From IMG/VR virus record IMGVR_UViG_3300017917_000199, positions 20,962-84,961 of that record: a DNA stretch of 64,000 nt; one strand, given 5' to 3'. Positions 11,253 to 63,586 of the stretch are shown here, piece after piece. The position numbers and the translations under genes were made by a program. The stretch comes from a virus. The notes beneath the pieces are model-generated. The model saw only the letters and a list, made by a program, of their open reading frames with translations. It was not told the origin of the DNA and made no database searches. The stretch's first letter is position 1; the number at the start of each line of letters is the position of its first letter.

Positions 11253-11984
11253 TTAGATATTATCTGGACGCTTTTCTAGCTTGTACTTTTTACCGAGAAT
11301 GTCACCATGCATTAGTGCTAAGTAGCTTAGTGTAGATTCGTCATCATAATCAATGAAATGTGCCGAACTTGTCCATCTAAAATGCCAGATTCCCCATCGT
11401 TTAGGGTCACGGTTCATCCAACGCTTTAATGCATTACTGGGATGCAGTGTCTTTTGACGGTTAATTGTTTCTTTAAATTCATCTAAAAACCCGTCTTCAA
11501 CACGCTTAGATTTCAAATATATTCGATATTTGTGTTTAGGTTCTTCAACAAAGTGTTTGACCCCAGCATATTGACTAGTTTGAACCTGTGTATAGTCTGG
11601 ATTATACATAGGACCAAGCTCTTGTGCAATTGCTTGTAATTTTGATAAATCGTTACAAAAAATAGCAACAGTATCACCCTCAATACGCATAGACATATCT
11701 TTAGTTTTCTTACGGGTATTCTGTAAGTTAAGCAAAGTTTTTAATGCATTTTGATTTTGAATTACATCAGGTAAGTCAGCTTTTTTGATAGAGCCGAATC
11801 TGTTACTTTTGCCTGCAATCTTATTGTCAAATTCGGCAGCCGTCTTACACCACCAAATGTATCTCGCACAAGGGATGTTTACCCTCATGCGATACTCGTA
11901 ATTGTTATAGTATGTATTGTCCCGATACTCATAATAATTGATACCGGGAACATTATCAACTGACTTCAATAATCCCATCTTCAT
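11253..11984 (-). CDS. Hypothetical protein
   Basis: 243-aa ORF overlapping the clpA 3' end. Confidence 0.55.
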   Translation of the reverse strand: MKMGLLKSVDNVPGINYYEYRDNTYYNNYEYRMRVNIPCARYIWWCKTAAEFDNKIAGKSNRFGSIKKADLPDVIQNQNALKTLLNLQNTRKKTKDMSMRIEGDTVAIFCNDLSKLQAIAQELGPMYNPDYTQVQTSQYAGVKHFVEEPKHKYRIYLKSKRVEDGFLDEFKETINRQKTLHPSNALKRWMNRDPKRWGIWHFRWTSSAHFIDYDDESTLSYLALMHGDILGKKYKLEKRPDNI

Positions 11985-14226
11985 TCACCCTTGCGTTAGT
12001 AGCTTGAACAGAATTGAACTCAATTCCATCACCGTTCATTACACATGTAATATTAGCATTTTTGATACGCTCAAACAAGATTTTTTTAGATAGAGGCACC
12101 CTAATCAATTCGTCAATCTTACGTGCTAGAGGACGTGCGCCCATTTTCTTGTCATAACCTTTGTCTGCCAAATATTCAATGACAGGCTCGGTTAGGTTCA
12201 ATGTGATGTTGTGCTTATCCAACAGTGTTTTCTTGAGGTCTTCAGTGAATTTAACAACAATCTTCTTAATCGCAAGCATGTCAAGTTTACCGAACTTGCA
12301 AACAAGATCCAAACGATTACGGAATTCAGGCTTGAAGAATTCTTTCAGTGCTTTGTCATCTTCACCTGTACGCTCTTGTGTACCGAAACCAATGTTATTA
12401 CGTTCGTTGTCACTAGAACCCAAGTTACTGGTCATAATGATGATAGTGTTCTTACAGTTCACTTCTTTACCATTACTACCTGTGATTCGACCTTCATCAA
12501 GGATCTGCAGGAAGATGTTGAAAATATCAGGATGAGCCTTTTCAACTTCGTCAAACAACATGATTGAGTGTGGATTCTTACTCAAGTCGCTGATTAGTCT
12601 ACCACCACCAACTTGACTGTCACCGAATCCAACATAACCAGGGGGAGGACCGATCAAGCTAGATACACTGTGCTTCTCTGAATATTCACTCATATCATAC
12701 TTGAGCAATGGCATGTCAAGGTTCTTACTCAACAACTTAGCCAATTCTGTTTTACCTGTACCTGTTGGACCTAAGAACAAGAAACTAGCCATTGGCTTTG
12801 TTTCATTGTTAATGCCAGCAAAACTTACATAGACACGTTCAAGTACTTTGTTGACAGTTTCGTCCTGACCATATAGTTTGCCCTTAACGTTAACTTCAAG
12901 AGTATTAATACGGTCAAAGTTGTCACCTGAAAGTTTATCAGCAGGCACACCTGTGAATTTTTCTACTTGTTCGTAAATCAATTCTTTAGTAATTACTGCA
13001 CCTTCATTGTTTGCAACACGTTGTTTAGCACAAGCCGCATCAAGCAAATCAATGCTCTTATCAGGATTCTTACGGTCGTGAATGTAACGACCAGCTAATT
13101 CAACTGCTGTACTAATTGCGTCTTGTTCGATTTCAACATGATGGAACTCAGCCAAACGTGTAGACAATCCAGAAAGAATGCGTACAGTAGATTCTTGGCT
13201 AGGTTCATCAACACCAACACGATAGAATCGACGCATCAATGCACGATCCTTTTCGAAAGATTCGTAGAATTCTTCCCATGTAGTGCTTGCGATAACTTTC
13301 AGTGTTCCCTTAGTAATTGCAGGCTTAATCATATTGGCAAAGTCAACTGATCCGTTGTTAGAACCACCTGCACCCTGCATAGTATGTGCTTCATCAATGA
13401 ACAGAATAGCTTTCTTCTTACTGTTCAATGCGTCAATAACCAGTTTGACTTTTTCTTCAAAGTCACCGCGATACTTACTACCAGCAAGCAACGCACCAAC
13501 TTCAAGGCTGTAAAGTTCATGGTCTTTTAAGAATTCAGGAATATCATTCTCGTGGATTTTTAGTGCAAGACCTTCAGCAATAGCTGTTTTACCTACACCA
13601 GGATCACCTACCATCAATACGTTACTCTTAAATTTCTTAGCAAGAACATTAACGATATCGTCAATTTCTTTTGTGCGACCAATCAGTGGTTCAATCTTAC
13701 CAGCTGCTGCCAATTGAGTTAGATTAACAGTGTATTCTTCCAGAATTTCATTGGCTTGGTCATCTGTAAGTTTGTTAGTTGTTTCACTGTTCTTATAATG
13801 TTTCTGCCAGTGTGCAACAAACTCATTCTTGTTGACACCGTATTTTAGCAAGTAGTAATGGGCATGACTGTTACCTTCACTTGCGATAGAAAGATACAAG
13901 TCAACAGTTGTAACTTGACGGCGGCCAGTAAACAAAACTTGTGTCACACTACGATTCATTACTCGTTCAAGTGAGTTTGTTCGTTTGGGTTGGACTTCTT
14001 CCTGTACATCCTTCACAACGATTGCGTGTAGGCTATCCAAATAAGCAACAACATCTTGTGTCATTGCATCAACTTCAACGCCAAAACTATCTAAACACTT
14101 TTTAAATGGCTGATGCGTAATCAGTGCCAATAGCAAGTGTTCAATTGTGCAATATTGGTGGTTACGTTCTTTAGCATACTCAATGGCATGCTCGATGATG
14201 CTTTCAATTTCGGGACTGTTTTGCAC
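11956..14226 (-). CDS. clpA: ClpA-like AAA+ chaperone/protease ATPase
   Basis: Clp N-domain, two Walker A motifs (GDPGVGKT, GPTGTGKT), IGF loop, no ClpB middle domain. Probable GTG start at 14226 after AAGGA. Confidence 0.9.
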   Translation of the reverse strand: MQNSPEIESIIEHAIEYAKERNHQYCTIEHLLLALITHQPFKKCLDSFGVEVDAMTQDVVAYLDSLHAIVVKDVQEEVQPKRTNSLERVMNRSVTQVLFTGRRQVTTVDLYLSIASEGNSHAHYYLLKYGVNKNEFVAHWQKHYKNSETTNKLTDDQANEILEEYTVNLTQLAAAGKIEPLIGRTKEIDDIVNVLAKKFKSNVLMVGDPGVGKTAIAEGLALKIHENDIPEFLKDHELYSLEVGALLAGSKYRGDFEEKVKLVIDALNSKKKAILFIDEAHTMQGAGGSNNGSVDFANMIKPAITKGTLKVIASTTWEEFYESFEKDRALMRRFYRVGVDEPSQESTVRILSGLSTRLAEFHHVEIEQDAISTAVELAGRYIHDRKNPDKSIDLLDAACAKQRVANNEGAVITKELIYEQVEKFTGVPADKLSGDNFDRINTLEVNVKGKLYGQDETVNKVLERVYVSFAGINNETKPMASFLFLGPTGTGKTELAKLLSKNLDMPLLKYDMSEYSEKHSVSSLIGPPPGYVGFGDSQVGGGRLISDLSKNPHSIMLFDEVEKAHPDIFNIFLQILDEGRITGSNGKEVNCKNTIIIMTSNLGSSDNERNNIGFGTQERTGEDDKALKEFFKPEFRNRLDLVCKFGKLDMLAIKKIVVKFTEDLKKTLLDKHNITLNLTEPVIEYLADKGYDKKMGARPLARKIDELIRVPLSKKILFERIKNANITCVMNGDGIEFNSVQATNARVNEDGIIEVS

Positions 14227-14242
14227 TATAGTTTCCTTTAAG

Positions 14243-15070
14243 TTATTTGTTTTTGGCTTGAAGAATGCTATTTTTAATAGCAGAGTCAATTTTATCAGGG
14301 ACGAATGGTTTAATCAAGATGATTTGGTCTCCAAACAAGTTTGTATTTGGAATGGGCATTCCTTGACCTGCAATCTTCAACTGCATATGCGGCTGCGTAT
14401 TTTCTGGTACCGTGACTGTGAAAGTTTTTCCCGAAATCGTTGTGAATTCAAACTCTCCGCCCGCAATTAAATCTAATACAGAAACTCGTTGGTTACAGTA
14501 AAGGTCGTTCCCATTTCTTTCGAACTTTAAATGTGGTCTGATTTTAAATTCTACAAGCAAACTTGCACCATCAATCATATTATCAAAACGTACTTGTCCA
14601 CCGTCTGGGATTCCTTTGGGCACCTTAATTGTTATTACATGATTTCCTTTTGGTGTTTGTAACTGCAATGTTTGTTCTGCACCATTGTAGACTTGTTCCA
14701 AATCAACTACCACTACCGTCCTAAACATTTGCGGTTGTTGTTGTCGTTGTTGGTGATGCCCAAACATTTGACTAAAGAGGTCGTTCATGTCAAATCCATT
14801 GACATTAAAACTGAACCCTCCGGGCCCAAAACCAGCCCCACCAAATGGCCCGGGTCCTGGACCAAAGCCCCCTGGTCTGTTAAAAGGGTTCTCGTACTCT
14901 TGTCTTTTTTGTGGATCTGAAAGAATGCGGTACGCTTCTTCGATTTTTTGGAATGTAGCAGTATCACCACCTCGATCTGGGTGGTGTTGTCCTGCTAATT
15001 TGCGATATGCTTTTTTGATTTCGTCTGGGGTAGCGTTTCTGTCTACCCCTAAGGTTTTAAAATGGTCCAT
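14243..15070 (-). CDS. dnaJ: DnaJ class B (CbpA-like) co-chaperone
   Basis: J domain with HPD, G/F-rich linker, C-terminal domain, no Zn fingers. Confidence 0.9.
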
Positions 15071-17779: not shown

Positions 17780-18038
17780 GACCAGCTGTAATAACAGCTT
17801 CTTTTTCTAGTTGTCCTATTAGATTAGGATAGATTTGTTTATAATATGTATCCATCTTCTCCCAATCAGTTTCAACCGTCTTACCCTCAATTACACACTT
17901 TTGTACCTGCTTGGTGGCATAATCCAGGATTACGTTGCAAGTTTGTAAGTCTGCCGGTTTTATCTTCTTCGACACTGCAACCTGTTCGTCAATTTGTCCC
18001 CCAGGTTTTCTCAAATAAGTAATCAATAAATATCTCAA
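17766..18038 (-). CDS. Hypothetical protein
   Basis: 90-aa ORF coupled to the clamp loader gene. Confidence 0.55.
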   Translation of the reverse strand: MRYLLITYLRKPGGQIDEQVAVSKKIKPADLQTCNVILDYATKQVQKCVIEGKTVETDWEKMDTYYKQIYPNLIGQLEKEAVITAGQKGA

Positions 18039-18958
18039 GTTGTTAACTCCACTAATGTTGCTGCCATTGCTATTTCGGGAATACCGACTAATGGCAAATT
18101 TGCTAGACCATTACGAATAATAATGATACTTGCGTCTTTACGTTCTTGGTCTTTGCCCCACAAATCCAAGTTATCGTACATCCATTTATACGTATCTTCA
18201 ACTCTTGTCGGGTAAAGTGCGATATATTGCATTAACTGCTGTCTTCCCTCAAGAACTTTTCCAGATTTAAACAGTTGTGTCGCTTCCAACAACAAGTCAT
18301 TTTCACTTGATCCATGTGTTTCAGGCGCTAGTAGTTTACCTGTGCTACTATTAACTTGCAGTTGATTTAGACACTTACGCAGATCAGGATATGTTGCACG
18401 AACATACGTATCTAATGTGTCTGGATCAGCTTCAATATTTTCATTAGAAAGTACAGTAGCCGCACGAATCAAAAAGTCGTTGATATCAGGCTTAGCAATA
18501 TGAAACTCATGGCATCGTGACTTTAACGCAGGGATAACTTTGTATCCATAGTTACATGTCAGAATGTATCTACAAGTTTCAGCATACGCTTCCATATCAT
18601 TACGCAATGCAGCCTGTGCGTCACGTGACAGATAATCAGCTTCGTCTAATAGAACAATTTTAAACTTACCAAATGGCATTGTTTCAACAAAGCCATTGAT
18701 TTTTGTTCTTACGTTTTCGACCGAGTTTTCTCTGGATGCATTAATCTCAAGTACATCATAATCATCCACTTCAAGTTCTTTGATAAGAACTTTTGCAAGT
18801 GTAGTTTTACCTGTGCCTGGATCACCACTCAATAACAAGTGAGGGATAGATCCTTCTTTGATCCAGTTTTCAACTTGCTGCTTTTGCCTTTCGTCAACAA
18901 ACACATAATCAGAAACTGTGTTTGGACGATACTTTTCTACCCACAATTGATTTTTCAT
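18035..18958 (-). CDS. Clamp loader subunit (RFC small/T4 gp44-like)
   Basis: LWVEKYRP, PHLLLSGDPGTGKTT, EINAS, LLDEAD, SRC. Confidence 0.92.
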   Translation of the reverse strand: MKNQLWVEKYRPNTVSDYVFVDERQKQQVENWIKEGSIPHLLLSGDPGTGKTTLAKVLIKELEVDDYDVLEINASRENSVENVRTKINGFVETMPFGKFKIVLLDEADYLSRDAQAALRNDMEAYAETCRYILTCNYGYKVIPALKSRCHEFHIAKPDINDFLIRAATVLSNENIEADPDTLDTYVRATYPDLRKCLNQLQVNSSTGKLLAPETHGSSENDLLLEATQLFKSGKVLEGRQQLMQYIALYPTRVEDTYKWMYDNLDLWGKDQERKDASIIIIRNGLANLPLVGIPEIAMAATLVELTT

Positions 18959-19641
18959 TCTTTTTTATCACCAAATAGTTGTAACAATGACAAGAATATA
19001 TTAATGAAATCTAGGTACAATGTCAATGCCCCGGTGACTTCTGCAATCCCAGTATCAGTATCATACATGACCATTTCACGAATTTTTTGGGTATCATACG
19101 CTGTCAATCCCAAAAAGATAATGATAGCTAGTGCAGAAATTACCATTTGAAATACAGTGCTACCTACAAAAATGTTAATGATGCTGGCAATAATGATTGC
19201 AATTAAGCCAACAAACATGAACTTGCCTATGCTGTCTAGGTTGTTCTTAGTAAAGTACCCATATAGACTCATGGTTCCAAATAGTACTGCTGCTCCCATG
19301 AATGCTGTAAAAATGCTACCCATTTGGTATACAGCAAAGATAGTAGCAAAACTTAGTCCCATCAATGCTGCAAATCCATGTAGCATCAATAGTGCGATAG
19401 ATTTAGGTGGACCAGCATTTAATGCAATGGTAATTGCAAAAATAGCTGCTAGTGGAGCAAAGATTACAACCCACTTTAATACTCCTGTAAAAAAGAATTC
19501 TAGTAGTTGTGGAGTAGTACCAACAAAATAACTCACTAGCATACTAATAATAACAGCGACACTCATGTGGCTATAGACATTTGCCATAGCAGTGTTGATT
19601 TGTGCTGCTGAACGATAGGTTAAAGTATCTGAATAGCTCAT
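18955..19641 (-). CDS. Bax inhibitor-1/YccA family membrane protein
   Basis: About 7 TM segments; AYDTQKI and GALTLYLDFINIF motifs. Confidence 0.9.
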   Translation of the reverse strand: MSYSDTLTYRSAAQINTAMANVYSHMSVAVIISMLVSYFVGTTPQLLEFFFTGVLKWVVIFAPLAAIFAITIALNAGPPKSIALLMLHGFAALMGLSFATIFAVYQMGSIFTAFMGAAVLFGTMSLYGYFTKNNLDSIGKFMFVGLIAIIIASIINIFVGSTVFQMVISALAIIIFLGLTAYDTQKIREMVMYDTDTGIAEVTGALTLYLDFINIFLSLLQLFGDKKE

Positions 19642-19952
19642 CTTTTTAATGCCTCCATAGTAATAATTTGTGAAATATGTTTACCTAATTCTTCTTCGTC
19701 GTTGACAACATAAAGACTAGTCTCTACCCTATCATTTCTATTGTCATACTGTCTGAATTCAATAGCCCAACCACCGTTAGCTTTGAACATTTTGAACTGA
19801 ATTGGCTCTGTATTTAAGTCATCACTTTCTCTAACTAATTGCGCTCGGCGAACCTTAGAAGTACCAATAGTGTTGATAGCTCTAGGTTCATCATCTATAC
19901 GTTGAGCATTGTTAATTTTGTCGCCCAACCATTTGTAAAACCATTGTATCAT
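19638..19952 (-). CDS. Hypothetical protein
   Basis: 104-aa ORF in operon. Confidence 0.55.
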   Translation of the reverse strand: MIQWFYKWLGDKINNAQRIDDEPRAINTIGTSKVRRAQLVRESDDLNTEPIQFKMFKANGGWAIEFRQYDNRNDRVETSLYVVNDEEELGKHISQIITMEALKR

Positions 19953-19954
19953 TT

Positions 19955-20602
19955 TTACCCCAAATCTACTTTACCGTTACACTTTGGACAAATATATGCA
20001 CCTTTGTCATCATCATTAGGATTATCTACTAAATCCATAATGTCCTCAGTTGAGAAATCACATTCAGTGCATCTAAATTGTGCGTACTCAGGTTCAGGTG
20101 CATTACTAAAGGGCCACTTTGCTCCGGGCTCTAATTTAATTGACTCAGTAACTTCTTCATCTTCTTTGTCAGAGCCAACAATTTCACCTGTTGGATTACC
20201 GTCATCGTCAAGTCGTTCAATGATTAAATCACAATCGATAATCATTTCACATTCATCTTGCACCCAACCATGTTCTTCAAGGTCTAGCCAAGAATTACCC
20301 TCGTCAAAGAATTCTTGTAGCCATTCTTCGGTTTCCGCATCACAATCATCGTAATCGATTTCTTCCCAGCAACCGTCGTTAGTTTCAACTAGTTCTGTTT
20401 CATAGTCGCAGTTGTAGATATCTACCCCTGCTTCAATGTTTGGTGGATTGTCATCATCTGTATACACAGTGAATTCACCCCATCGCCAACCAGTCTCAAC
20501 CATAAGACGATTATCACCTTTGATGAAATAGTTACGTTCGATAACTGATTTCTTCCACTCGGGCTTGACAGACCATAATGCCATTTTAGTATACCTTATC
20601 AC
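19955..20602 (-). CDS. Acidic hypothetical protein with C-terminal Zn ribbon
   Basis: CTEC...CPKC. Start may be the downstream MALWSV. Confidence 0.55.
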   Translation of the reverse strand: MIRYTKMALWSVKPEWKKSVIERNYFIKGDNRLMVETGWRWGEFTVYTDDDNPPNIEAGVDIYNCDYETELVETNDGCWEEIDYDDCDAETEEWLQEFFDEGNSWLDLEEHGWVQDECEMIIDCDLIIERLDDDGNPTGEIVGSDKEDEEVTESIKLEPGAKWPFSNAPEPEYAQFRCTECDFSTEDIMDLVDNPNDDDKGAYICPKCNGKVDLG

Positions 20603-20963
20603 TCATTGTTTCATCTTCCATCGGCTCATCCGATACAAGCAGTATATCATTAGGATCTACTTTTCGCAACGTGACTTTACCCGAAGGAGTTTCAACAGTG
20701 ATACCGCGTGTCCAACGACCGTGACTAATAAGAATGTACTTACCAATTTCTAGTTGTGGGTCTTTAACATCAGGACCTAGTCCATAAATCTTTGCCCAAC
20801 GTGGACGAATACCAGATGACTTTTTATCATCGTCTAACAGAACAATGCCACCTTTACTGATACGTTCGTCAAACTTCATGTCCGAAACAATAATGTTATC
20901 ATGCATGAAGCGTAGTTTGTCTACTTTTGTAGGACTAAATGCTGGTTTGCTATACTCGCTCAT
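20586..20963 (-). CDS. groES: GroES-like co-chaperonin
   Basis: DNIIV...ISKGGIVL...GLGP...DILLV. Confidence 0.75.
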   Translation of the reverse strand: MSEYSKPAFSPTKVDKLRFMHDNIIVSDMKFDERISKGGIVLLDDDKKSSGIRPRWAKIYGLGPDVKDPQLEIGKYILISHGRWTRGITVETPSGKVTLRKVDPNDILLVSDEPMEDETMSDKVY

Positions 20964-21301
20964 TTCTTTCCTTCTTTTGCTTTAATTGCCTCAATCTCGT
21001 CATCAAGCTCTGTGTCTAATTCAAACTCTTTTTCAGCTTCGGTCAATTCAGCTAAATCTATTTTTGGTTTTGCTGGCGCAACAGGTTTACTTTTAACTGG
21101 TTGTGCTGAACGGTTACCTACAGTCTTTGAATATGAATCGTTGACTTTGGTAGTCACGGGTTTTACAATTCTGCCCTGATCGTTAATCGTATCACCCCTA
21201 GCGTTAACACTCATGTTGCCAACTGCTCGGGTTTTCTCATTTCTTGCGGCTAGTGCGGACATGTCTACGACTTTGCCCATTGCTGTTCTATAGTTAGCCA
21301 T
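20960..21301 (-). CDS. Hypothetical protein
   Basis: 113 aa; SD AGGAG; AVGNMSVNARGD motif. Confidence 0.6.
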   Translation of the reverse strand: MANYRTAMGKVVDMSALAARNEKTRAVGNMSVNARGDTINDQGRIVKPVTTKVNDSYSKTVGNRSAQPVKSKPVAPAKPKIDLAELTEAEKEFELDTELDDEIEAIKAKEGKK

Positions 21302-21311
21302 TTTAGTTCTC

Positions 21312-21821
21312 CTATTTTAAAAACTCATCTATTGGTAAGTCGTAGTATAAGCTATCAATTTTGTGAACTCCTATTAAGAATAACACATAACTCGCTACAC
21401 TACTACCCCTACCCACACCCCATACGATACCATTTTTACGCATGGTATCAACTAAGTATTTAAGATATTTTAACAAAACAAACATGTTTCTGTCTTGAAA
21501 TTTCAATAATTCGTCACCCGCACGTTGTAATTGTTCCTCAGTCGTGCATTGATCCAAGACAAATTTAGCAATGTCAAAATTTTTATATTCTTCTGGAAGA
21601 TACCAATTGCTTTGATTTAATTCATCAAACTTTTCTAGTGAGAGTTTCGGATCAACATATTCTTTTATGTTGTTGATATTGCTTGCTTCCAAAAAAACAT
21701 AGTCTAAATTTATGTTATTTTCAACCAAAACTTGTTTAATTATGCGTGTAGGATCTTGTAAAAACAAACCGCACAAATCAGTTTCATTTAAAATAGGTTG
21801 ACCATATAAATCTATCTTCAT
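21312..21821 (-). CDS. dnaE: DNA polymerase III alpha-like, N-terminal palm fragment (split gene part 1)
   Basis: R...EL......F...LKYLVD.MRKNGIVWGVGRGSSVASYVLFLIGVHKID....L..DEFLK corresponds to the DnaE GPGRGS...FERFL segment. Confidence 0.8.
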   Translation of the reverse strand: MKIDLYGQPILNETDLCGLFLQDPTRIIKQVLVENNINLDYVFLEASNINNIKEYVDPKLSLEKFDELNQSNWYLPEEYKNFDIAKFVLDQCTTEEQLQRAGDELLKFQDRNMFVLLKYLKYLVDTMRKNGIVWGVGRGSSVASYVLFLIGVHKIDSLYYDLPIDEFLK

Positions 21822-21827
21822 AGGTTT

Positions 21828-21856
21828 ATAATACACGACTTACCTGTTAAAGTCAA
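21828..21856 (-). promoter_or_regulatory. Sigma70 promoter, leaderless geometry
   Basis: TTGACT-17-TATTAT-6 nt-ATG. Confidence 0.75.
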
Positions 21857-22465
21857 TCAAGTTGGTTGTTTTTCGGATTCATTAGTGAATAGAATTTGGG
21901 CTTTGGTTACTGGTAATTTTTCTTCCCAATATAACTCATAGTCAGCCCATTCCATTTGACACGTTTTGACCAATTTAACAATCTTTTCCTTTTTGTTAAC
22001 TTTGGACAAATCGTTTATTGATGTGTTTGAATCATTCCACCATCCTTGTTTTTCAAATGGTCCCATAGGTTCTAATATATCGTATACAAATTTGACACCA
22101 TCGCTTAATCGTGATCCTAACGTGATTTCATCTAAAACTAACCTACCTTCACATATAGCATTTACTTTACGTAATAATGCAATAGCGACTATTTGGTCAT
22201 AGGGTTCATCAGGTATTGTGGATATTTTTAAATTGGCATCTTTGAATTTGTCAATTATTTTCTTTTCAGTGTTTTGAACGAAAACACAGTTATCCAAACA
22301 TTCATTGAACAATAACTTGACTCTTTCCATAGCAACATTTTGCTCGTGTATGGACTCGACTTCAACTGACATGTTTAACACTATGTTATAGTGGTTCATG
22401 TAAAATGTATTTTTAAAATACACACCGGCATACAATTCAACTGAACGTTCGATTCTGGTGCTCAT
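21857..22465 (-). CDS. Hypothetical protein
   Basis: 202-aa ORF. Confidence 0.55.
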   Translation of the reverse strand: MSTRIERSVELYAGVYFKNTFYMNHYNIVLNMSVEVESIHEQNVAMERVKLLFNECLDNCVFVQNTEKKIIDKFKDANLKISTIPDEPYDQIVAIALLRKVNAICEGRLVLDEITLGSRLSDGVKFVYDILEPMGPFEKQGWWNDSNTSINDLSKVNKKEKIVKLVKTCQMEWADYELYWEEKLPVTKAQILFTNESEKQPT

Positions 22466-22689
22466 TTTTTAATGTCAATCTTGGTTTTGATGTTTTGTTT
22501 TGCCATCATCTCATCCATTTTCTTATTGTACTCTGACTTATAGCTTTCTATTGCCATATTAAGTTGTTGCACCAATGCGGCATTTTGAGTTCTGTAGGCA
22601 AAGGTAAGTTTGGACATTAAGTCCGTGATAGTAGATTGTAAGTCCTCTAGTGACTTATCTGATAGGTCATTTATAAAAGGATGTTTCAT
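22462..22689 (-). CDS. Small coiled-coil hypothetical protein
   Basis: 75 aa; CTAAATA 6 nt upstream of the start. Confidence 0.55.
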   Translation of the reverse strand: MKHPFINDLSDKSLEDLQSTITDLMSKLTFAYRTQNAALVQQLNMAIESYKSEYNKKMDEMMAKQNIKTKIDIKK

Positions 22690-62057: not shown

Positions 62058-62477
62058 TTGGTTTGCCCGATGCTAAATAAAATGTATTTTAACATAATGG
62101 TTCACAACGATTTTTTCAAGAAACTAAGCGAGGCTCACCCATTCATAACAGTGTGTTCCTACGCCAACCAAGATTACGTAGGAATAGTGCAAAACCGTGA
62201 TGACATGGTTACCACTATATATGATTACGGGGCCATTGTCGATCCAGTAATCAAAGAAAAATTCTTAGAATTAGGTGATGTTTGGTGGTGGGAAAGTAAT
62301 AGATTAATACCAATCAATCTATTTCTAAAAGATGAATGGACTATTTTTAAGCCGTATCTACGCACTTTTAACAATAAAAGTCTGTCAATAATACACGGTC
62401 CTGTTTGCAGTATGACAGAATTAAACAAAAGACGTTCAAAACGCCGTAGTATAACGTTAGTTAAGCGACTCAGTTAA
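62058..62477 (+). CDS. Hypothetical protein
   Basis: WWWESNRLIPINLFL motif; true start probably 62082 or 62097. Confidence 0.55.
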   Translation: MVCPMLNKMYFNIMVHNDFFKKLSEAHPFITVCSYANQDYVGIVQNRDDMVTTIYDYGAIVDPVIKEKFLELGDVWWWESNRLIPINLFLKDEWTIFKPYLRTFNNKSLSIIHGPVCSMTELNKRRSKRRSITLVKRLS

Positions 62478-63032
62478 TAAGTTCATATGAACTACAACCA
62501 AATGTGCATATGCAATTGCGTGTGCTTTTTTGAACACATATCCGTCAGTACCCTTATCCCAGACAGTCTTTGCGACTTCTTTCCAAGTTTCCCCAATTAA
62601 ATGCTTTTTGCCAGGACGAATCACAGCTAGAAACATAGCTAATCTTGGGATACTGTCTACTGGTTCGGGCATCTTTTGTAGATTATAAAACTGATTGTTC
62701 AAGTGTATGAGTTTTTCGACAAAAGTGGGGTCTTTCAATTTTGTCCAATCTGGTTCTTTCATTAACGTAACTAAATGTTCTTCGCTTTTGACAGACTCAT
62801 ACACATGAACGTTCAGTAAATCTAACTTAAAATATCCTCGTTTTTCAGCATCAACATAATCAATCGCAGCCATATCATTGATGGGATCATATGGAATATC
62901 TGTGACATACACTCCAGTATTATGCTTACGCATGGGTTTTACATTACGCATAGCCGCTGAGGTATGAGGTATTAGTTTTAATAACTCCTCTCTTGATCCA
63001 AAGTCAATGTCAATGTCTGCATCTAATTTCAT
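62457..63032 (-). CDS. dnaE: DNA polymerase III alpha-like, catalytic palm/fingers fragment (split gene part 2)
   Basis: DADIDIDF, KHNTGVYV, GYFKLDLL, LAVIRPG, YVFKKAHAIAYA. Confidence 0.82.
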   Translation of the reverse strand: MKLDADIDIDFGSREELLKLIPHTSAAMRNVKPMRKHNTGVYVTDIPYDPINDMAAIDYVDAEKRGYFKLDLLNVHVYESVKSEEHLVTLMKEPDWTKLKDPTFVEKLIHLNNQFYNLQKMPEPVDSIPRLAMFLAVIRPGKKHLIGETWKEVAKTVWDKGTDGYVFKKAHAIAYAHLVVVHMNLLTESLN

Positions 63033-63586
63033 TTTTGTGCCAATCCTGCTTCCATCAATTTCTTGTACGCTTGTTGCACAACAATAGCCTGTCTTTCTGC
63101 ATCTTCTACTGCTTTGTGACTAGTCACATGCCCACCGTCTTTAAGTTTGACTCCTGCGATTTCCCATAATGTTCTTGTATCACGCATTGACCAGAAGGGC
63201 CAGGGAATAGGATTAGGCTTATCGCTTGTTTGTCGCCATGCATGTTCCATTACGACCAAATCAAATGGCGCACCATTACTCCATACAGCACGACGGTTCC
63301 AACAAAACTTATAAAGGGTCTCCATGCAATCAGCAAATGGGACTCGTCCCCTGTCTCCCAATGCTTCTTCAAGTGCTTCAGGGCTCTGTTCAGACCACCA
63401 TCGTAATGTATCATCATTGATACTCCTATTATATATTTCAGTTTGATCCTCAACTGTGGGTCGTAATTCTAATCGTTCTACTACACCGTTACCTCTAGGA
63501 TCAAAACGAACGGCACCGATAGTTAGTATAACACAATCAGGTGTTGTGTTCAAACTTTCAATGTCAATCATAATATCCGCCGCCAT
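63029..63586 (-). CDS. DEDDh 3'-5' exonuclease
   Basis: IMIDIESL, WSNGAPFD, RDTRT, HKAVEDA. Confidence 0.85.
   Translation of the reverse strand: MAADIMIDIESLNTTPDCVILTIGAVRFDPRGNGVVERLELRPTVEDQTEIYNRSINDDTLRWWSEQSPEALEEALGDRGRVPFADCMETLYKFCWNRRAVWSNGAPFDLVVMEHAWRQTSDKPNPIPWPFWSMRDTRTLWEIAGVKLKDGGHVTSHKAVEDAERQAIVVQQAYKKLMEAGLAQK

Follow-up and report, generated by a model that had tools for sequence, protein, structure and literature searches.

Do two short genes of one phage genome, which resemble complementary pieces of the bacterial replicative polymerase DnaE, encode the subunits of a single enzyme, or are they what is left of a decayed one? The question is raised by a 64-kb stretch of DNA (the window), which comprises bases 20962–84961 of an 84,961-bp IMG/VR record with a CheckV completeness of 24%. 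The window covers part of the genome of a Rak2/PA5oct-like (group 2.2) jumbo phage from an uncultured pond lineage. The initial annotation had read one of its genes as the N-terminal half of a split DnaE and had placed the complementary half about 41 kb away, at 62457–63032; that gene exists, on the minus strand and at a distance of 40.6 kb. The two genes and their products are referred to here as N and C.

21312–21821, minus strand: N subunit gene, intact, 169 aa; palm NTP-binding part and family-specific residues 1–82
62457–63032, minus strand: C subunit gene, 191 aa; motifs DIDIDF (D6, D8, and D10), KLD (D71), IRPG, and FKKAH

The N gene and its product

The minus-strand reading frame of N can start at a GTG (21836, giving 174 aa) or at an ATG (21821, giving 169 aa) and is closed by a TAG at 21312–21314. 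We take the ATG as the true start because of the lengths of the homologues (169 aa in 78 and 168 aa in 32 of the best 120 clusters) and because the residues directly behind the methionine, YGQP, are conserved among them; the gene boundaries of the initial annotation, which correspond to the ATG form, are correct. Both of the sequence features it had pointed out, the GVGRGSSVAS motif and the ...DEFLK terminus in front of the TAG, are present. Against Pfam, the N protein matches PF07733 (DNA_pol3_alpha) with an E value of 4.7e-9 and 36.7 bits (cut-off 23.9), residues 96–173 of the 174-aa form covering profile positions 17–94 of 260. No other Pfam family matches N at E ≤ 0.1, and the protein is therefore without a PHP or an intein family. 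N also matches phrog_11127 (E = 2.4e-40), a 171-position family of small phage proteins named 'DNA polymerase', and this match reaches the final position of the profile.

Mapping of N and C on DnaE

Both proteins were compared by hhalign with a DnaE alignment of 10 sequences (residues 280–800 of the E. coli protein and nine phage DnaEs), N being represented by a profile of 150 diverse homologues. Residues 83–169 of N align with residues 310–393 of E. coli DnaE (probability 97.7, E = 2.3e-12). GVGRGSSVAS of N lies over GPGRGSGAGS of the E. coli protein, and the ...DEFLK end lies over ...FERFLN, the equivalence that had been proposed for it; HMMER supports this placement of N as well. When the N sequence alone is searched against the PDB, the Taq and E. 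coli Pol III α chains are reached with E values of 0.07–0.17 at best. Residues 1–82 have no DnaE counterpart by hhalign and no named structural neighbour at TM 0.5 outside their own family.

In C, residues 4–11 (DADIDIDF) align with E. coli 399–406 (MPDFDVDF) and residues 12–185 with 489–774 (probability 96.5, E = 7e-10). D6, D8, and D71 thereby fall on D401, D403, and D555, which in E. coli Pol III α are the catalytic carboxylates; IRPG corresponds to FRPG (639–641) and FKKAH to FNKSH (756–760). Two segments of the E. coli protein, about 421–488 (the thumb region) and about 644–735, have no counterpart in C. Across 16 C sequences with identities as low as 40%, eleven positions (D6, D8, D10, K69, D71, R139, P140, F167, K168, H171, and Y175) are invariant in all. 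With HMMER, the DxD motif came out two residues away (E = 0.13); this register was rejected in favour of that from hhalign, in which D, D, D, and F all match.

The two halves each match a small stand-alone PHROG family from end to end, that of C being phrog_11778 (E = 1.7e-59). The kinship of C with DnaE is suggested by the profile–profile alignment with the 10-sequence DnaE alignment that we built ourselves, the only comparison in which the mapping is clear, and by weak matches to PHROG profiles of full-length DnaE (E = 0.002–0.009). With the single E. coli sequence in place of the DnaE alignment, hhalign returns one weak local match to the C alignment (probability 7.8). Plain HMMER searches found no Pfam family for the C protein, nothing in the PDB at E ≤ 1 for the protein alone or at E ≤ 10 for the 16-row profile, and no match of the profile in the E. 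coli chromosome. PF17657 is reached by three of the 16 C members, with a best E value of 0.019, and is carried by 12% of the 850 members of the ESM Atlas cluster for C.

N thus ends at the equivalent of E. coli N393, six residues short of the catalytic PDFDVDF, and C starts at about E. coli 396–399. According to these alignments, the cut in the DnaE fold is clean, with the G-S loop on one side of it and the DxD motif on the other, and nothing is lost or added there. The DnaE-like part of N is collinear with E. coli 310–393 and complementary to C, so that the reading of N as the N-terminal half of a split polymerase holds. What is split, however, is not a full DnaE as the initial annotation implied but a minimal core of 169 + 191 aa, as compared with 1160 aa in E. 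coli.

The nature of the cut bears directly on one alternative, that a split intein splices the two proteins together once they have been translated. There is a precedent in cyanobacteria, in which the catalytic subunit is likewise supplied by two distant DnaE genes; there the product is of full length and the two parts are joined by intein-mediated protein trans-splicing at another site. The cut in the phage proteins differs from the cyanobacterial split site, and there is no intein here. C starts only three to six residues beyond the point at which N ends, which leaves no space for intein halves of about 100 aa and about 35 aa, and no intein or Hint family is matched at E ≤ 0.1. We regard splicing of this kind as vanishingly improbable. 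The earlier remark that N contains neither a full PHP domain nor an intein motif agrees with PF07733 as its only match and with the absence of spare residues at the cut.

Maintenance of the split

Homologues of both halves are abundant. Of the 8000 candidates scored for each half, 7998 were significant for N and all 8000 for C, and clustering at 90% identity gives at least 8000 clusters for each half in environmental giant phages. Lengths vary little, from 164 to 184 aa for N and from 187 to 206 aa for C in the best 120 homologue clusters. In a library reduced to 50% identity, N has 1035 matches at E ≤ 0.001, and the best 150 of these are 95–222 aa long. The end of N was located in these 150 diverse representatives (the best of 1035): 103 stop exactly at the last column of the query, 131 within two residues of it and 147 within 12 residues. 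GVGRGSS is kept in 148 of the 149 rows of the N alignment that are occupied at this position.

Variable ends or frameshifts, as a pseudogene would show, are confined to 5 of the 150 representatives, two of them cut short and three with frameshift-like tails; the single extension past the usual last column (+36) belongs to one of the latter three. These (P0267, P0314, and P0339) leave the N-family consensus in the middle of a motif and run on into unrelated sequence, which looks like frameshifting. They look like either sequencing errors or rare real pseudogenes.

At the IMG/VR loci, the reading frame of N is intact in 45 of 45 cases and that of C in 79 of 80, the last C locus being without a complete called ORF. 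No insertion or deletion was seen in the contigs of four DNA runs, drawn from three studies, that cross the region 20500–22500. A fused form was not found, in that none of 833 candidate proteins of 336–2000 aa searched with C matched it at E ≤ 0.001 (weak evidence), and no single IMG/VR locus of 3.5–6.6 kb contained N and C together.

Substitution rates were estimated from pairwise comparisons (Nei–Gojobori for C). For C, the median dN/dS is 0.10 over 1549 pairs with dS between 0.05 and 1.5. Pairs of N are mostly saturated (dS > 1.5 in 951 of 1035), and a 50-pair median of 0.45 was set aside because near-saturated pairs drive it; four distinct pairs with low dN (< 0.1) were used instead and give 0.043–0.093. 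Values of about 0.04–0.1 in both genes point to purifying selection. Within N, dN is 0.014–0.034 in the DnaE-like half and 0.09–0.14 in residues 1–82, the DnaE-like half being the more constrained.

These observations have to be weighed against the view that N and C are decaying pseudogene remnants of a full-length dnaE of phage or host origin. The proteins are very short in comparison with the 1160-aa DnaE, lacking the PHP, thumb, and C-terminal domains, and the frameshift-like tails of 3 of the 150 N representatives could be taken in the same sense. Decay is nonetheless very improbable, as length and end point are constant over thousands of clusters, the catalytic motifs are invariant, the reading frames are intact, and dN/dS is low; the relative order of the genes, C upstream of N, would not be expected from simple disruption of one gene either. 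Decay and intein splicing are both effectively excluded. Judged by its constancy in length and end point and by the substitution pattern, the split is maintained under purifying selection, and the initial preference for a maintained two-subunit design over decay is borne out.

Distribution and order of the two genes

A set of 50,697 phage records contains 95 with N and 96 with C, and the two are distributed alike over genera. The carriers are the Rak2 / 121Q / PBECO4 / GAP32 / CBB / PA5oct / Atu_ph07 / SCTP-2 / RsoM2USA group, and the N and C proteins of the window have at most 45–49% identity to those of cultured members. Among the 23 records listed for both genes, 21 have the two on one strand, with C 30–44 kb upstream of N; the other two are Atu_ph07 filed twice, with 182 kb between N and C. 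The window has the same order, C being 41 kb upstream of N, as do three of the four long IMG/VR relatives (at 44, 48, and 53 kb). An insertion into one gene, or its simple disruption, would not leave this order. The fourth relative (G003, 303,057 bp; loci L073 and L087) has a rearranged C block, with N 95 kb upstream of C. N is present in four of five long IMG/VR records with C, and the record without it is 49% complete. One IMG/VR contig of 117,666 bp (L127 and L128) carries two copies of N in opposite orientation about 70 kb apart, which could represent an inverted duplication, terminal repeats, or an assembly artefact.

Synteny with cultured relatives extends over the surroundings of both genes (PA5oct, RaK2, Atu_ph07, and a Vibrio phage were compared). 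N is followed by a 113-aa gene, a GroES-like gene, and a clamp-loader gene, and then by PhoH on the opposite strand; C is followed by a small opposite-strand gene, a gene of about 260–330 aa, and then the primase. A family B polymerase is intact in five of five records (the window record and four relatives), with frames of 903–917 aa, and the distance from N to this gene is 22–26 kb in all five. A PHP domain was detected in none of these five records (controls, 14 of 14), which is not proof of absence because the records are only 24–86% complete.

Promoter of the N gene

The initial annotation had assigned N a leaderless σ70 promoter of its own. A box of this type lies immediately upstream of the gene.

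21828–21856, minus strand: σ70-type promoter-like box; −35 TTGACT (21856–21851), 17-nt spacer, −10 TATTAT (21833–21828)

The −10 element ends 6 nt before the ATG, and there is no Shine–Dalgarno sequence. Taken over the window alone, promoter-like boxes are no commoner than chance (20, as compared with 24.4 ± 5.7 in shuffles). In the relatives, a box in the same register (TTGAC-17-TAnnAT with at least 9 of 12 matches and the −10 ending 5–6 nt before the ATG) is found in 19 of 29 distinct upstream regions, a count that is not to be read as a probability because the regions are related by descent and hence phylogenetically non-independent. Shuffled regions give a mean of 0.46 (maximum 3), and four other registers give 0–1. 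A Shine–Dalgarno-like motif precedes N in 0 of the 29 regions. In the 14 upstream regions that align without gaps, TTGAC and TA..AT are near-invariant and the spacer is variable; since the spacers have diverged, this argues for selection on the hexamers.

In leaderless σ70 transcripts of the λ cI type, the −10 element stands about 6–7 nt before the start codon, no Shine–Dalgarno sequence is present, and the 5′ end is the A of the AUG. With a −10 ending 6 nt before the ATG, the expected start of the N transcript coincides with the A of the ATG, and the mRNA would be leaderless. The N gene thus appears to be transcribed as a leaderless mRNA from its own predicted σ70-type promoter, in keeping with the initial assignment. 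The box is not conserved in 10 of the 29 relatives, and PA5oct is without the leaderless arrangement. No box of the N type was found before C in 48 distinct regions. A literature search for leaderless transcripts in jumbo phages led to work on phiKZ and AR9 and to none on the Rak2/PA5oct group; for PA5oct, 32 σ70-like promoters are reported in its own paper.

A similar arrangement was seen at a DnaJ-like gene of the window (14243–15070, minus strand, 275 aa, J-domain motif recognised by eye), which is preceded by TTGACA-17-TAAAAT-6-ATG with 11 of 12 matches. Among six leaderless-type boxes of the window, only those of the DnaJ-like gene and of N have 10 or more matches. Leaderless σ70 transcripts may be a recurring device of this phage lineage.

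Genes downstream of N

The following genes are encoded downstream of N.

20960–21301, minus strand: conserved 113-aa gene adjoining the 3′ side of N; phrog_14844 (E = 3.2e-7); GGAGA ribosome-binding site
20586–20963, minus strand: GroES/gp31-like co-chaperonin gene; phrog_931 (E = 2.7e-15), Cpn10 (E = 0.0041, under the Pfam cut-off)
18955–19641, minus strand: Bax1-I / YccA-like membrane protein gene; PF01027 (E = 1.8e-53)
18035–18958, minus strand: RFC/gp44-like clamp-loader ATPase gene; AAA, Rad17, DNA_pol3_delta2, and Gp44_lid matches

The GroES-like, YccA-like, and clamp-loader genes had been predicted to follow N on the same strand, and all three do. From 21821 to 17766, eight co-directional genes overlap or are separated by no more than 10 nt, and one weak terminator-like site is located inside the clamp-loader gene; the layout makes it plausible that the string headed by N is an operon. 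PA5oct has a gene of the same length at the position of the 113-aa gene, a 'chaperonin' gene at the GroES-like position, and, at the clamp-loader position, a gene with the same AAA, Rad17, DNA_pol3_delta2, and Gp44_lid matches. A GGAG-type site precedes the 113-aa gene in most relatives as in the window.

Three genes that separate the GroES-like gene from the clamp loader (18955–20602, minus strand) are extra in comparison with PA5oct. They encode an acidic protein of 215 aa whose C-terminal part has a zinc-ribbon-like CxxC..CxxC, a protein of 104 aa, and the Bax1-I/YccA-like membrane protein. Further along, a 777-aa ORF (11956–14289, minus strand) has the look of a ClpA/ClpB-type double AAA+ chaperone, with two Walker A motifs seen by eye. 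It adjoins the DnaJ-like gene; counting the GroES-like gene as well, the phage would have a sizeable chaperone set.

The exonuclease gene next to C

63029–63586, minus strand: Rv2179c-like DEDD 3′–5′ exonuclease gene; PF16473 (E = 1.1e-31), phrog_255 exonuclease

The stop codon of this gene overlaps the start of C (ATGA). Among the 66 IMG/VR loci that extend far enough (loci L006–L085), 57 have an exonuclease gene as the immediate upstream neighbour of C, and about 12 loci have an insert of 166–427 nt between the two. The upstream neighbour of C matched an exonuclease family in none of four cultured relatives (PA5oct, Atu_ph07, RaK2, and the Vibrio phage), and coupling of exonuclease and C as a general rule was rejected on this ground. 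For the lineage of the window, it is possible from the gene arrangement that the exonuclease is a proofreading partner of C.

Relation to known polymerases

The PHROG families matched by the window proteins are those of proteins from Rak2, PA5oct, 121Q, and Atu_ph07; in PA5oct, the pair is encoded by EST35_0288 and EST35_0220. For group 2.2 jumbo phages, a minimal Pol III α split into two distantly encoded proteins has been described by Iyer et al. 2021 (Viruses 13:63; PMC7824862). In the portions of that paper covered here, the N piece is said to bind the NTP, the C piece to bind Mg2+ and the template, and other Pol III domains to be absent; a family B polymerase, a clamp loader, and a primase accompany the split enzyme, for which a role in synthesis of one strand or in repair is suggested, and the split mini-Pol III is proposed as a model of the ancestral enzyme. 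The design itself has thus been in print since 2021, and the window adds another member, different in that its phage is from an uncultured pond lineage. Relative to the same portions of the text, the leaderless promoter predicted for N, the C-before-N order, and the exonuclease gene abutting C are possibly new. The literature searched yielded no other description and no bench test of a split mini-Pol III.

E. coli DnaE (b0184; PDB 2HNH and 2HPI) shares with the pair the GRGS, DxD, third Asp, RPG, and [NK]K[SA]H..AY motifs in the same order, but it is a single chain of 1160 aa with PHP, thumb, full fingers, clamp-binding, and OB parts, whereas here there are two chains of 169 and 191 aa. The full-length phage DnaEs (phrog_405; group 3.2 jumbo phages and actinophages) are, like N and C, phage proteins of the C family, and the two halves match them weakly and collinearly. 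They differ in being single chains of about 950–1190 aa that contain a PHP domain and are close to host DnaE.

A probable two-subunit minimal polymerase

N and C very probably constitute a two-subunit, minimal C-family (Pol III α-like) nucleotidyltransferase that is auxiliary to the family B polymerase. In the proposed mechanism, the GRGS loop of N, part of a Pol-β-like palm, would hold the incoming nucleotide triphosphate, and C would supply three acidic metal ligands (D6, D8, and D71) together with template-binding finger motifs (IRPG and FKKAH). As the cut lies inside the catalytic fold, between GS and DxD, neither protein would be expected to work alone, and the active enzyme would be an N:C heterodimer; from the sequences, this heterodimer is predicted to form and to polymerise DNA. 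The pair has no PHP, thumb, β-clamp-binding, or OB parts. Because an intact family B polymerase is present, the enzyme is best viewed as an auxiliary polymerase, serving one strand, gap filling, or repair, and not as the sole replicase.

It is quite unlikely that N and C are functional without being one enzyme, or that the pair is a nucleotidyltransferase other than a polymerase. N might then be a regulator or decoy that binds nucleotides or the host replisome, or the pair might act in signalling or in modification of DNA or RNA ends. Several features would fit such roles: a distance of 30–180 kb between two genes under different control, a complete family B polymerase already present in the phage, an additional domain of 82 residues in N, and the absence of the thumb and of most parts that grip DNA. 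Set against this, N and C complement each other exactly as halves of a single catalytic fold, without any overlap, they co-occur (95 and 96 phage records), and the DnaE finger motifs that contact the template and the incoming nucleotide are invariant in C.

For expression of the two-subunit polymerase, N would be made as a leaderless transcript from its own host-type σ70 promoter at the head of a tight gene string, and C would be translationally coupled behind the DEDD exonuclease gene in this lineage. A more elaborate and unlikely version is a three-part, separately gated mini-Pol III, in which leaderless N is joined by C and the exonuclease acting as an α–ε pair without a PHP domain. If that were the case, an active polymerase would exist only when both expression programmes overlap, and N would be the switch of a second, specialised replicase working alongside the family B polymerase.

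No smaller relative of the bacterial replicative polymerase is known than the split mini-Pol III. The window contributes a clean, strongly selected member in which the split point is fixed, along with a hint as to how N is expressed, and it opens the prospect of asking whether a two-chain core of 360 residues can, as predicted, polymerise DNA.
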